Virus record (IMG/VR): IMGVR_UViG_2698536458_000012
DNA: 6,042 nucleotides
Source of the DNA: a virus
Taxonomy: Duplodnaviria; Heunggongvirae; Uroviricota; Caudoviricetes
Reading direction: 5' to 3' (one strand)
Both the position numbers and the translations under genes were made by a program. Positions 2,333 through 6,042 of this stretch are shown here, piece after piece. Position 1 is the first letter of the stretch, and each line of letters begins with the position of its first letter. The notes under the pieces are model-generated. The model did not search any database. It was not told the DNA's origin and saw only the letters and a program-made list of their open reading frames with translations.

Positions 2333-2479
2333 TTAAATTTAGCACTGTTAAAAATTTAATCCTTAACCGGAGGGATTTCTGCACCCTCAAATCATCAGGA
2401 GACCACCCGAAAGGGCGGGGAGCAGTCACACATCTGTTTCCGATAGCCCCGTTCTAATGCTACACTCTTTGATATTTTT

Positions 2480-2686
2480 ATGACCCCAATAAACATATTT
2501 ATGACAGTTGCTGATTTCAAACGGCCCAAATTGGAGCTCNNNNNNNNNNNNNNNNNNNNNNNNNNNNNNNNNNNNNNNNNNNNNNNNNNNNNNNNNNNNN
2601 NNNNNNNNNNNNNNNNNNNNNNNNNNNNNNNNNNCGGTGAACTCGATAAAGAGATTCAGGACGAACTGGAGGCCAGGAATGATTGA
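2480..2686 (+). CDS. Small ORF (68 codons if uninterrupted), partly N-masked; possible small regulator upstream of the methyltransferase
   Basis: ATG at 2480; the readable C-terminus GELDKEIQDELEARND is protein-like; TGA at 2684-2686 overlaps an ATG at 2679 that has a GGAGG RBS. The middle is masked (2540-2634) and no RBS is evident, so this is tentative. Confidence 0.25.
   Translation: MTPINIFMTVADFKRPKLELXXXXXXXXXXXXXXXXXXXXXXXXXXXXXXXXGELDKEIQDELEARND
2668..2672 (+). promoter_or_regulatory. Shine-Dalgarno GGAGG for an ATG at 2679 (ORF runs into masked bases)
   Basis: GGAGG lies 6 nt before the ATG at 2679 (MIDKSPSEFSYKD...). That ORF overlaps the stop of the 2480-2686 ORF in an ATGATTGA arrangement, which suggests translational coupling. 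Confidence 0.4.
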
Positions 2687-2862
2687 CAAATCACCAAGTG
2701 AGTTCAGCTACAAAGATNNNNNNNNNNNNNNNNNNNNNNNNNNNNNNNNNNNNNNNNNNNNNNNNNNNNNNNNNNNNNNNNNNNNNNNNNNNNNNNNNNN
2801 NNNNNNNNNNNNNNNNNNNNNNNNNNNNNNNNNNNNNNNNNNNNNNNNNNGGATTTTACATT

Positions 2863-4629
2863 ATGAATGTGCAACATTTTGATTTTTTTACAGATAATGA
2901 GTTTTCTAATCTGGAAAGATATCAAACTTGTAAAGCCATGGCCAAAGGTTATGCGGGCAATTACAAAACCGGGCAGTCAAGGTTGATGCATGCCCGCTCA
3001 TACTGCTTCAGCATCGTAGCTGCATATTGGGATACCCTTGCAAAAAAGCAAAAAAGCAGCATTAAAATGAGGGCAGTACCGCACACTGTTTACATAGAAG
3101 ACATTCCATGTGATGCACGCGAGCTCGCTGAACGAACAGGTGAGCTTATTGCTCAATTTCCGGCGGAGGACGCTGGATATCTGATTGGGTCAATTTATAC
3201 GGTAATGCTGCCATCCGCTTACCGTTCGGAATTGGGGGCTTACTATACCCCCCCACCTTTGGTAGCGCGTCTCTTGGACCTGGCTGAAAAGTCTGGTGTT
3301 GATTTTTCTCATGCATCGGTTATTGATCCTGCGTGTGGTGGCGGTGCATTTTTGGCACCAGTAGCCATTCGAATGTTAAAAAAAGACAAGGGGTCTTCCC
3401 CTGAATGGATGTTGAGGAGAATCAGTCGTCGTTTAAAGGGGATAGAGATCGATCCATTTGCGGCTTGGATGAGTTTGGTATTGCTCGAATCTGTACTAAT
3501 GCCACTATGTGTAAAGGTAAAACGTAGATTGCCTGAAGATACAATTATTGTTGCTGATGCGCTTCAGCAAGATAAATTTTCTGGTTATGATCTTGTGGTA
3601 GGGAATCCGCCTTACGGACGTGTCACTCTCGATATTAAAACGAGAGAAAAATATTCTCGTTCGTTATTTGGTCATGCAAATCTATATGGATTGTTCACCG
3701 ACTTAGCTGTTCGCATGGTTAAAGAGAAAACAGGAGTTATTGCATTTCTTACGCCAACTTCTTTTCTTGGTGGGCAGTATTTCACCGCGCTGCGAACCCT
3801 TTTGACCGAAAAAACTACTCCGTATGCCCTTGATTTCGTCACTGACAGGGATGGGGTCTTTGACGATGTTCTCCAGGAAACAATGTTGACAGCATTCAAG
3901 GCGGGAGAACATAAAGTTCGGGCCCAGGTATCCTCACTTGTCCCTAAGGGGTTGAACAAAGCAAAAATTGAGAAAATAGGTAATGTTGATATAGAAAAAG
4001 GTGGAGCAACGTGGCTTTTGCCACGCGTTAAAGATGATGCCTGTTTTCTTAATGTATTAAAACAGATGTCTACGCGTTTAGCNNNNNNNNNNNNNNNNNN
4101 NNNNNNNNNNNNNNNNNNNNNNNNNNNNNNNNNNNNNNNNNNNNNNNNNNNNNNNNNNNNNNNNNNNNNNNNNNNNNNNNNNNNNNNNNNNNNNNNNNNN
4201 NNNNNNNNNNNNNNNNNNNNNNNNNNNNNNNNNNNNNNNNNNNNNNNNNNNNNNNNNNNNNNNNNNNNNNNNNNNNNNNNNNNNNNNNNNNNNNNNNNNN
4301 NNNNNNNNNNNNNNNNNNNNNNNNNNNNNNNNNNNNNNNNNNNNNNNNNNNNNNNNNNNNNNNNNNNNNNNNNNNNNNNNNNNNNNNNNNNNNNNNNNNN
4401 NNNNNNNNNNNNNNNNNNNNNNNNNNNNNNNNNNNNNNNNNNNNNNNNNNNNNNNNNNNNNNNNNNNNNNNNNNNNNNNNNNNNNNNNNNNNNNNNNNNN
4501 NNNNNNNNNNNNNNNNNNNNNNNNNNNNNNNNNNNNNNNNNNNNNNNNNNNNNNNNNNNNNNNNNNNNNNNNNNNNNNNNNNNNNGCTACTTAATTCGCA
4601 TGTTGTCGATCGGGCGTTCAGGTGTATAA
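2863..4629 (+). CDS. N6-adenine DNA methyltransferase, gamma class (Eco57I/TaqI-like, NPPY); likely the modification subunit of a type II R-M system
   Basis: Motif X GAYYTPPPLVARLLDLA, motif I VIDPACGGGAFL, motif IV DLVVGNPPYG, and a following IAFLTPTSFLGG block, in the gamma-class order. ATG at 2863 is the first start after the mask, but the frame is also open upstream (TTG 2683, GTG 2698) into masked bases, so the true start is uncertain. Bases 4083-4585 are masked; the frame is consistent across the mask and ends at TAA 4627-4629. Confidence 0.8.
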   Translation: MNVQHFDFFTDNEFSNLERYQTCKAMAKGYAGNYKTGQSRLMHARSYCFSIVAAYWDTLAKKQKSSIKMRAVPHTVYIEDIPCDARELAERTGELIAQFPAEDAGYLIGSIYTVMLPSAYRSELGAYYTPPPLVARLLDLAEKSGVDFSHASVIDPACGGGAFLAPVAIRMLKKDKGSSPEWMLRRISRRLKGIEIDPFAAWMSLVLLESVLMPLCVKVKRRLPEDTIIVADALQQDKFSGYDLVVGNPPYGRVTLDIKTREKYSRSLFGHANLYGLFTDLAVRMVKEKTGVIAFLTPTSFLGGQYFTALRTLLTEKTTPYALDFVTDRDGVFDDVLQETMLTAFKAGEHKVRAQVSSLVPKGLNKAKIEKIGNVDIEKGGATWLLPRVKDDACFLNVLKQMSTRLXXXXXXXXXXXXXXXXXXXXXXXXXXXXXXXXXXXXXXXXXXXXXXXXXXXXXXXXXXXXXXXXXXXXXXXXXXXXXXXXXXXXXXXXXXXXXXXXXXXXXXXXXXXXXXXXXXXXXXXXXXXXXXXXXXXXXXXXXXXXXXXXXXXXXXXXXXXXXXXXXXXXXXXXXYLIRMLSIGRSGV

Positions 4630-4776
4630 GCGGAAGTGTTGCTGTTTCGGCCTATGAATTGAATTCAATNNNNNNNNNNNNNNNNNNNNNNNNNNNNNNN
4701 NNNNNNNNNNNNNNNNNNNNNNNNNNNNNNNNNNNNNNNNNNNNNNTATCGCTGGTTTCTATGGAGTGATGATTGC

Positions 4777-5859
4777 ATGAATCTGCCTGTTGTTCCCCCA
4801 TTGAATGTTATCCGGGAAAGATTACAATTAATTTTCCCTGAAGGGACTGAGAATCGTGGATATTTAATTCGGGAAATAGCTGCAAAAACAATTTTTGTCA
4901 TGTTTTATGCTGGTGCGGTTGAGGGGCTGGGGCGATGGATAAGGCCCAGCCAGGTTGTAAGTATGGGAGATTCGCAGGCTGCTCTTACTGATGATGCGTC
5001 CAGAGAAAGCTGGGTAAAGATGACTTTCTCTAAACAAAAGATAAGGCCTGCTGATGCATGGTATGCGGAAAATACGCGTGAGCCAATACGTGATGAAACT
5101 ATAAAAAATGGCCTAATACCTTGCAATGCAATTGTTGAGCGTAAAGGTATACCCACCACATCCTCTCGTCCTCGTTACAGTTTGAATCGCTCTTTTGCAG
5201 CACTCTTTGATGCCGGGCTTGAAGGAGATTCGCTGCTGAGTGCAATAAGTTCCTGGCAAGAAAATCATTTGAACAAAGCCGCTCTTGCTAGGTTGCGTTT
5301 ATTGAAATCAGGGGCAGTGATTGCTGCTGATGCCGTAGTCGTCACTTTCCCAAATGGAGAGAAGAGAACTTTAGCTCCGGGCCCGTCAAGTACAATAGCT
5401 AAGGCCGTCATCGAAGTTTTTGCTCCTAATTTTCTTAAGAATCCAACTGTGCTCTGGTTGTCTGAATCCGGGAATAAAGTTGTTGCTCAGGATGATGTAT
5501 TGGCAAAAGCATTGGGGCTGAATATTGATGCCTCAAAAGCACTTCCAGATATTATTTTGATTGATTTGGGAGAGGACCGAACGGGTTCGGACATGCTTGT
5601 AGTTTTCACTGAAGTAGTTGCGACAGATGGGCCTATAAACAGGGAACGAAAAGTTACTCTCACTCATTTGGCTATTGACGCTGGGTTCAGCGAGAAAAAT
5701 CTTGCATTCCTTACGGCATTTATGGACAGAAGTGCTCTGCCTTTTAAAAAGGCAATACCAGAATTGGCGTGGGGATCTTATGCATGGTTTGCTTCTGAAC
5801 CGGAGCACTTAATTGATCTTCGGGATGGTTATCCGGTAAAGATCAGCCAGAGAAAATGA
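4777..5859 (+). CDS. Putative type II restriction endonuclease, possibly BsuBI/PstI family; partner of the upstream methyltransferase
   Basis: 360-aa ORF co-oriented with and directly downstream of the methyltransferase, sharing its AT-rich composition. GGAG at 4763-4766 could serve as an RBS. The family label comes from recalled similarity to BsuBI/PstI-annotated proteins, not from a search. A possible acidic cluster (PDIILIDLGEDR...VVFTEVVATDG) is present but no canonical PD-(D/E)xK could be confirmed by eye. Confidence 0.5.
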   Translation: MNLPVVPPLNVIRERLQLIFPEGTENRGYLIREIAAKTIFVMFYAGAVEGLGRWIRPSQVVSMGDSQAALTDDASRESWVKMTFSKQKIRPADAWYAENTREPIRDETIKNGLIPCNAIVERKGIPTTSSRPRYSLNRSFAALFDAGLEGDSLLSAISSWQENHLNKAALARLRLLKSGAVIAADAVVVTFPNGEKRTLAPGPSSTIAKAVIEVFAPNFLKNPTVLWLSESGNKVVAQDDVLAKALGLNIDASKALPDIILIDLGEDRTGSDMLVVFTEVVATDGPINRERKVTLTHLAIDAGFSEKNLAFLTAFMDRSALPFKKAIPELAWGSYAWFASEPEHLIDLRDGYPVKISQRK

Positions 5860-6011
5860 CCAAAGTTTGATATCCGCCACGCCCTGAAGGATGGGGGTTT
5901 TACGGTGCACTGGATAAAAAATCGGTTTCATAGATTTGCCCACCGTGGTATACGCCTGCGATAAAAACTTTATTGTCATCAACGGCAAAAGCAATAATTG
6001 TTCTGTGGCGG

Positions 6012-6042
6012 GGTGATGCTGCCAACTTACTGATTTAGTGTA
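6012..6042 (+). mobile_element. IS1: IS1 left terminal inverted repeat and first bases (element continues past the window end)
   Basis: GGTGATGCTGCCAACTTACTGATTTAGTGTA is identical to the canonical IS1 left end as I recall it; insA would read rightward beyond the window. Confidence 0.85.

Follow-up and report, generated by a model that had tools for sequence, protein, structure and literature searches.

We analyzed a stretch of 6,042 nucleotides (hereafter the window) from the Caudoviricetes virus record IMGVR_UViG_2698536458_000012 of IMG/VR. Judged by its sequence, the region 2863–5859 is, with a probability of roughly 85%, a type II restriction-modification (R-M) gene pair of the PstI/BsuBI family. 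The predicted pair consists of a gamma-class N6-adenine DNA methyltransferase (M, here also called methylase), followed on the same strand by a restriction endonuclease (R) of 360 amino acids. An earlier inspection of the letters without database searches (the sequence-only reading) had guessed at a PstI/BsuBI-like type II pair and had predicted that profile searches would return BsuBI_PstI_RE for the 360-residue protein and Eco57I/N6_Mtase for the methylase. The elements it described are all present, none of them a product of chance. Both matches were found as predicted and the family assignment stands (Pfam, PADLOC REase_II and MTase_II), whereas PstI specificity does not follow from it, the identity to a CTGCAG enzyme being 26%. 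The pair is ordinary in kind and has already been annotated automatically. Its features are as follows.

2863–4780, + strand: predicted gamma-class N6-adenine DNA methyltransferase (M subunit); the coordinates are nominal across the runs of N at 4083–4585 and 4670–4746.
3232–3255, + strand: methylase motif X (LGAYYTPP), residues 136–143 of the 610-residue form, aligned with LGRVETPP of M.TaqI.
3248–3254, + strand: C7 homopolymer inside the motif X codons; C6 in the Shigella sonnei assembly L004 (about 8593).
3319–3354, + strand: methylase motif I, the S-adenosylmethionine-binding loop (VIDPACGGGAFL), residues 165–176 of the 610-residue form, aligned with M.TaqI.
3604–3618, + strand: methylase motif IV, catalytic NPPYG, residues 260–264 of the 610-residue form, aligned with M.TaqI.
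4777–4780, + strand: ATGA overlap, in which the endonuclease start lies over the methylase stop (RefSeq annotation of the Escherichia coli locus L001, and sequence reading).
4777–5859, + strand: predicted BsuBI/PstI-family type II restriction endonuclease (R subunit), 360 amino acids (Pfam, PADLOC, likeness to SdaI).
5476–5478, 5545–5550 and 5611–5613, + strand: putative catalytic residues K234, P257-D258 and E279, respectively (conservation in alignments).

Family and putative active site of the endonuclease

The open reading frame (ORF) of 360 amino acids that the sequence-only reading had placed behind the methylase, in the same orientation, does exist, and two Pfam families cover most of it. 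PF17728 (BsuBI_PstI_RE_N, a helix-turn-helix domain) matches residues 10–172 with an E-value of 1.2e-30 and 106.6 bits (cut-off 27; profile positions 2–136 of 140), and PF06616 (BsuBI_PstI_RE, the nuclease domain) matches residues 188–349 with an E-value of 9.3e-45 and 152.2 bits (cut-off 27; positions 2–152 of 154). The PADLOC model REase_II (PDLC03589) matches the protein over its full length (E 2.8e-128), and no model of NCBIfam matches it. SdaI (PDB 2ixs) is the only significant match by sequence in the PDB (E 1.8e-16). When an AlphaFold2 model of the endonuclease (mean predicted local distance difference test score, pLDDT, 79.4) was submitted to Foldseek, SdaI 2ixs was also the only significant match, with an E-value of 2.3e-16, a probability of 1.00 and 20% identity. 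The global template modeling score (TM-score) between the model and SdaI is 0.39–0.44, with a root-mean-square deviation of 19 Å; this low score is probably due to the two domains being oriented differently in the model. In the SdaI structure, which Tamulaitiene et al. reportedly described in Structure in 2006, recognition of the site is said to be the task of the N domain, a winged helix-turn-helix, and the nuclease is said to be the C domain.

The sequence-only reading had seen no clear PD-(D/E)xK motif in this protein and had left room for another kind of effector, which would then be a chance neighbour of the methylase and not part of an R-M system. Indeed, the classical lysine position is occupied by a valine (E279-V280-V281). 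The alignments give a different picture when known members of the family are included, namely SdaI and EcoGIII. The latter is a BsuBI/PstI-type R-M system of Stx2a prophages, whose methylase modifies CTGCAG and whose endonuclease is reported to be active (PMC3893438). In an alignment of 79 sequences containing both, P257-D258, E279-x-V281, G285 and R291 are invariant, and no fewer than 97% of the sequences, EcoGIII and SdaI among them, share E213 and K234; in an alignment of 38 closer homologues, P257, D258, E279, V281, G285, R291, E213 and K234 are all invariant. The segment LPDIIL...FTEVVATDGP of the endonuclease aligns opposite MPDLVL...MEAVKSKGP in SdaI and MPDVVL...VESVTSHGP in EcoGIII. 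By these alignments, the endonuclease keeps all of the family's own PD...ExV variant of the PD-(D/E)XK motif, common to the active EcoGIII and to SdaI, and by analogy with the family these residues would be the catalytic ones. Together with the two Pfam matches at the E-values given above, the match to SdaI, the PADLOC model and the adjacency of M and R in 77 of 80 related loci (see below), this effectively refutes an effector outside R-M, a reading that we regard as highly improbable.

Family and true extent of the methylase

An ATG at 2863 opens a long + strand frame, whose readable N-terminal part amounts to 406 amino acids according to the ORF listing and our reading of the sequence. This part matches the Pfam families Eco57I (E 9.3e-14, 52.3 bits, cut-off 25.3) and N6_Mtase (E 8.3e-10, 38.9 bits, cut-off 20.4), and the same two families are matched by the full-length unmasked methylase. 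The PADLOC model MTase_II (PDLC03338) matches the full length as well, with an E-value of 1.8e-300 (residues 7–608 against profile positions 2–602 of 604). Motifs X, I and IV (NPPY), which had been read from the letters alone, could be aligned to the corresponding motifs of M.TaqI, and their order is that of the gamma class.

The window contains runs of N at 2540–2634, 2718–2850, 4083–4585 and 4670–4746, and their lengths differ from those of the true bases in identical relatives: 133 positions stand for 105 bases at 2718–2850, 503 for 378 at 4083–4585, and 77 for 81 at 4670–4746. As a result, the reading frame is shifted and a false methylase stop appears at 4629, which the sequence-only reading had taken for the end of the gene. 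In identical unmasked copies the true stop is the TGA at 4778–4780, overlapping the endonuclease ATG at 4777. Runs of N of altered length can thus create a false gene end, which is a warning for similar analyses. The methylase is 598 amino acids long from the ATG at 2863 and 610 from the RefSeq start, which lies 36 nucleotides upstream inside a run of N. In E. coli FDAARGOS_943 (L001), RefSeq annotates a methyltransferase of the “HsdM family” with 610 amino acids at 7202–9034 and a “BsuBI/PstI family type II restriction endonuclease” with 360 amino acids at 9031–10113, the two overlapping by four bases.

Nine unmasked copies from E. coli and S. sonnei differ by at most three bases over 2.9 kb, and eight of the nine have an uninterrupted methylase ORF together with an intact endonuclease. 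In the unmasked copies that are identical to the readable parts of the window, the methylase is one uninterrupted gene, and neither of the two cases that the sequence-only reading had named as refuting it, two genes or a disrupted methylase, is seen there. We also considered whether the methylase could belong to a bacteriophage exclusion (BREX) system, a methylation-associated defense system (MADS) or a type IIG enzyme. These candidates were rejected, since the NCBIfam matches to PglX and MAD2 lie far under their cut-offs and cover the catalytic core only, and since no other genes of such systems are present near the methylase in the loci examined.

Conservation of the pair among relatives

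The ATGA overlap implies that the two genes are translationally coupled, with M before R. We scanned one genome per species in GTDB with the endonuclease as query, and 80 loci were returned. Their endonucleases share 47–70% identity with that of the window, and not more than 68% except for one truncated copy at 70%. Their hosts are Burkholderiaceae, Erwinia, Pseudomonas, Stenotrophomonas, many Sphingomonadales and further Alphaproteobacteria, besides members of a few other phyla. A methylase homologue lies directly upstream on the same strand in 77 of the 80 loci and ends a few bases from the endonuclease start; of the remaining three, one has a truncated endonuclease, one is cut off by a contig end and one has a gap of 2.3 kb. 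Methylase identity drops in step with endonuclease identity across the loci, from about 60% to about 45%. The subfamily is also present on plasmids of Burkholderia, whereas the phage collection contains no close relative of the window endonuclease, the best identity there being about 27%. Judging from these comparisons, the window pair belongs to a distinct and widespread subfamily of the PstI family. In the literature we found no experimental characterisation of this R-M system or of S. sonnei methylation motifs, and EcoGIII is the only precedent that turned up.

Known relatives and the recognition site

EcoGIII, carried by E. coli O104:H4, O145:H28 and O103, resembles the window pair in being a type II system of two genes on a prophage of Escherichia/Shigella. 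The Pfam families are the same, and in both systems M precedes R in the same orientation and overlaps it (in phage phiON-2011, L099, M at 2358–3827 and R at 3824–4777). However, the identity is 26% between the methylases (E 7e-27) and likewise 26% between the endonucleases (E 3e-22), and the EcoGIII proteins are shorter, with 489 against 598–610 amino acids for M and 317 against 360 for R. M.EcoGIII aligns with residues 248–584 of the window methylase, from just before NPPY through the C-terminal region. The settings differ too, as EcoGIII adjoins cI/cro in the Stx phage, whereas the window pair comes after the replication module of a Qin-type prophage.

PstI of Providencia stuartii and BsuBI of Bacillus subtilis, the founders of PF06616 and PF17728, resemble the window pair in the domain architecture of the endonuclease and in having a gamma-class N6-adenine partner. 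The PstI genes are divergent, unlike the tandem genes of the window. The PADLOC models of PstI size (a restriction endonuclease of 317 amino acids and a methyltransferase of 494) match the pair far more weakly than the subfamily's own REase_II and MTase_II models do, with E-values of 2e-28 and 2e-50, respectively, and the SdaI-type models match it only weakly. An 840-residue PADLOC model is matched by both the methylase (E 2.2e-27) and the endonuclease (E 1.7e-13), which is consistent with a fused M-R relative. We take this model to be YenI of Yersinia enterocolitica, a PstI isoschizomer. YenI is a fused methylase-endonuclease, in contrast to the two separate polypeptides of the window. SdaI, an 8-bp cutter recognizing CCTGCAGG and the only member of the family with a solved structure, has the PD...ExV motif and the Y/R/E/R residues of the N domain in common with the window endonuclease.

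The specificity of EcoGIII for CTGCAG is proven (PMC3893438), whereas the window pair has no proven site. At 26% identity to the EcoGIII subunits, the recognition sequence is not transferable by homology. The pair may nevertheless be an active PstI isoschizomer, which would recognize CTGCAG, methylate its adenine and cut CTGCA^G exactly like EcoGIII, and we consider this a serious possibility, at somewhat less than even odds. To our knowledge, every characterised member of the family reads a CTGCAG core, including PstI, BsuBI, EcoGIII, YenI and SdaI/SbfI, the last two with CCTGCAGG. Moreover, Y96, R101, E102 and R105 of the N domain are invariant in the alignment of 79 sequences and common to EcoGIII and SdaI, and both subunits are homologous to those of EcoGIII along most of their length. 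These likenesses have to be set against the low identity, which is 26% to EcoGIII in both subunits and 20% to SdaI in the Foldseek alignment, and against the fact that the PADLOC models matched are separate from those of PstI, SdaI and YenI type. In addition, the methylase is about 120 amino acids longer than M.EcoGIII, and the charge is reversed at position 106, beside R105, where the window endonuclease and 97% of its subfamily have Asp and where EcoGIII and SdaI have Arg or Lys.

We further counted hexamer palindromes in 1.1 Mb flanking the related systems (L011–L090). CTGCAG is over-represented there, with an observed/expected ratio of 1.28 and rank 60 of 64, which would speak against a PstI-like specificity, although the test is weak, having no control genomes and using flanks that may be mobile DNA. 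The most depleted palindromes in the same flanks are GGGCCC (0.33), GGATCC (0.40) and CTCGAG (0.43), as observed/expected ratios with no control set, and their depletion is probably generic for GC-rich Proteobacteria and is not taken to mark the target of the pair.

Proposed mechanism and activity

We propose that the two genes form a type IIP R-M system and are accessory cargo of a lambdoid prophage of Qin type, now decayed in S. sonnei. The methylase would be translated first and would methylate adenine at N6 in each strand of a short site, probably a palindrome, thereby protecting the host DNA. The endonuclease, coupled through the ATGA overlap, would depend on translation of the methylase for its synthesis. 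Its N-terminal helix-turn-helix is predicted to read the DNA, and its C-terminal PD-(D/E)XK-type nuclease (D258, E279, K234) would cleave that site wherever it lacks methylation, for instance on phage or plasmid DNA entering the cell. Cells that lost the pair would die through post-segregational restriction. Such killing would explain why a deletion mediated by the insertion sequence IS1 stops 152 nucleotides past the endonuclease and why the fragment persists across S. sonnei.

Several points weigh against this assignment. First, about 580 masked positions hide part of the window's own methylase. Second, a simple and crude scan for the sigma-70 consensus found no promoter-like site upstream of the methylase. 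Third, in the S. sonnei assembly L004 the methylase is frameshifted (C7 to C6) beside an intact endonuclease. Fourth, since CTGCAG is not depleted and the identity to EcoGIII is 26%, the guess of a PstI-like specificity is weak.

The missing promoter and the frameshift in L004, together with the heavy degradation of the surrounding prophage, would also suit a silent or decayed relic, whose genes are intact and unexpressed, or whose endonuclease is dead and whose methylase is at most an orphan enzyme. AT-rich acquired genes in Escherichia/Shigella are often silenced by H-NS, which would fit such a relic as well. We consider this unlikely. The endonuclease retains every family-invariant residue, and both ORFs are full length, with the near identity over nine copies described above. 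The sole frameshift sits in a homopolymer, where the C6 of L004 is most likely a sequencing error; if it were genuine, the endonuclease would have to be harmless there, either inactive or not expressed. Furthermore, if the system were dead, one would not expect thousands of isolates to have kept it whole precisely where an IS1 deletion ends. We hold it to be fairly probable that the pair is active in its host.

Regulatory signals around the pair were also searched for. The feature upstream of the methylase is the following.

2635–2862, + strand: leader upstream of the methylase, partly masked (2718–2850), with tiny ORFs only; its readable parts are 100% identical to 8008–8090 and 8196–8207 of the S. 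sonnei locus L002.

The ORFs of the leader (7040–7200 in L001, window 2635–2717) have 22, 16 and 18 codons, and two of them overlap at ATGATTGA. A crude scan showed no + strand terminator after the endonuclease, and a scan for inverted repeats that might act as regulatory elements or as the operator of a controller protein gave nothing convincing. No gene for a controller (C) protein is present at the R-M locus, and no RNA family was found when the window was scanned against Rfam.

Occurrence in Shigella sonnei and Escherichia coli

The R-M module was found by megablast in only 2 of 5426 complete E. coli genomes, at 99.5–99.8% identity, and the IS1 junction is present in neither of these two carriers. 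In the index of the assembly collection, 4192 blocks contain the exact endonuclease sequence, and NCBI assigns the identical endonuclease and methylase proteins to Shigella sonnei, with at least 1000 contigs for either one. The readable parts of window 2635–6042 are 100% identical to the S. sonnei loci L002, L007, L008 and L009, IS1 junction included. Thousands of S. sonnei assemblies encode this exact endonuclease protein, and hardly any of E. coli do.

If active, the pair would help to define which foreign DNA S. sonnei accepts, be it resistance plasmids or therapeutic phages, and S. sonnei would gain a species-specific N6-methyladenine motif. Knowing the recognition site would aid the genetic manipulation of this species. 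EcoGIII offers a precedent, in which the carrier of a prophage-borne PstI-type methylase and a related strain without it have different methylomes. We suggest, tentatively and as something short of a likely outcome, that the recognition sequence is other than CTGCAG, an uncharacterised type II specificity within the PstI family. The pair, which essentially the whole species carries, would then give S. sonnei a species-specific adenine methylome, a barrier to phages and plasmids, and an addiction module keeping the prophage fragment.

Prophage setting and the IS1 boundary

As claimed in the sequence-only reading, the module is more AT-rich than the genes upstream of it, and the difference is moderate. 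The guanine-cytosine (GC) content in the window, with N excluded, is 43.6% for the methylase and 44.3% for the endonuclease, against 50.9% for 1–2332; in the unmasked copy L002 it is 43.2% and 44.3%, respectively, against 50–55% for the replication genes. The upstream genes, described earlier as nin-like, are instead replication-module genes encoding DnaC-like, DUF977 and zinc-ribbon proteins. The gene order of intact prophages (L001 and L006) starts on the left with cro-like, YdaT, replisome organiser, DnaC-like ATPase, DUF977 and small zinc-ribbon protein genes. It continues with the methylase and endonuclease, parE/parD on the opposite strand, DUF968, RusA, Q, transfer RNAs, lysis genes and terminase. 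In related prophages a QueH-hok-rem module occupies the slot of the R-M pair, as expected of exchangeable prophage cargo, and one locus (L096) is a natural hybrid with an L002-type left arm and the QueH module. The earlier proposal of acquired prophage cargo holds: the pair is an accessory “moron” of a lambdoid prophage by its position between the replication module and parDE/DUF968/RusA/Q, its GC content and the alternative cargo found in the same slot.

The prophage has dicB and ydfABC as neighbours, and the chromosomal flank in S. sonnei contains a mannitol dehydrogenase-like gene, YdfZ, a GntR regulator, a short-chain dehydrogenase and Dcp. These neighbours and this flank presumably point to the Qin prophage site of the K-12 map. 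The prophage is heavily degraded: its late genes are deleted, its O-like gene is split, and it contains insertions of IS1 and of the IS3 family. At the right-hand end of the window two features follow the endonuclease.

5900–6011, - strand: 3' remnant of a relE/parE-family toxin gene, about 37 codons, cut by IS1 (Pfam ParE_toxin, E 1.9e-9).
6012–6042, strand not assigned: IS1 end, the terminal 31 nucleotides, identical to three IS1 ends in L002.

The IS1 end lies 152 nucleotides past the endonuclease stop, in agreement with the distance of about 150 bp given in the sequence-only reading, and the gap holds the parE remnant. L001 has a full parE at 10154–10465, accompanied by the parD antitoxin, and the match of the window to E. 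coli stops exactly at 6011. The parE remnant is the right-hand boundary of the R-M system and lies outside it. In L002 the IS1 copy at this position continues into the IS1 transposase genes (Zn_ribbon_InsA and DDE_Tnp_IS1). The S. sonnei IS1 (L002, region 11084–12051) cuts parE and joins directly to the mannitol dehydrogenase-like chromosomal flank, so the part from parE to the prophage end has been deleted, including parD and all late genes. In several genomes more IS1 copies flank the prophage remnant on the opposite side.

The left half of the window

In complete S. sonnei genomes, the left half of the window belongs to another prophage than the right half. Positions 1–2539 match this second prophage (L091), which adjoins a molybdate transporter-like operon, with 99.1% identity, whereas the identity to the region upstream of the R-M pair in S. 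sonnei is only about 94% and extends only over 1636–2318. Positions 2480–2539 (+ strand) encode the first 20 codons of the epoxyqueuosine reductase QueH (MTPINIFMTVADFKRPKLEL), and L091 continues past the equivalent of window position 2539 into the full QueH gene. The join between the two contexts falls inside the run of N at 2540–2634, about 200 nucleotides past the end of their common homology, which is unlike simple homologous recombination, and it is absent from every locus fetched. Scaffolding or assembly may have created it, or else the way in which the window was prepared. The left genes of the window (DnaC-like, DUF977 and a zinc-ribbon protein of 137 amino acids) form a replication module according to Pfam. 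The native left context is functionally equivalent, with replication genes, DUF977 and a zinc-ribbon protein, so the description of the setting in the sequence-only reading survives.

Positions 1–34 of the window occur three times in L091, each about 30 nucleotides past the start of orfA of an IS3-family transposase, whose orfA and orfB encode 100 and 272 amino acids, respectively. We take this element to be IS600-like. The repetition beside orfA indicates that the window starts at the end of an insertion sequence inserted in the replisome-organiser gene. This O-like gene (8–728) is split into two frames, 8–271 and 459–728, and looks like a pseudogene. It contains a perfect hexanucleotide repeat, (AGAGGA)x6.5, at 342–380, which encodes a Glu-rich tract. 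The alignment of the window (2539 bases) with L091 (2521 bases) has a single gap, which accounts for the difference of 18 bases and is probably located in this repeat.

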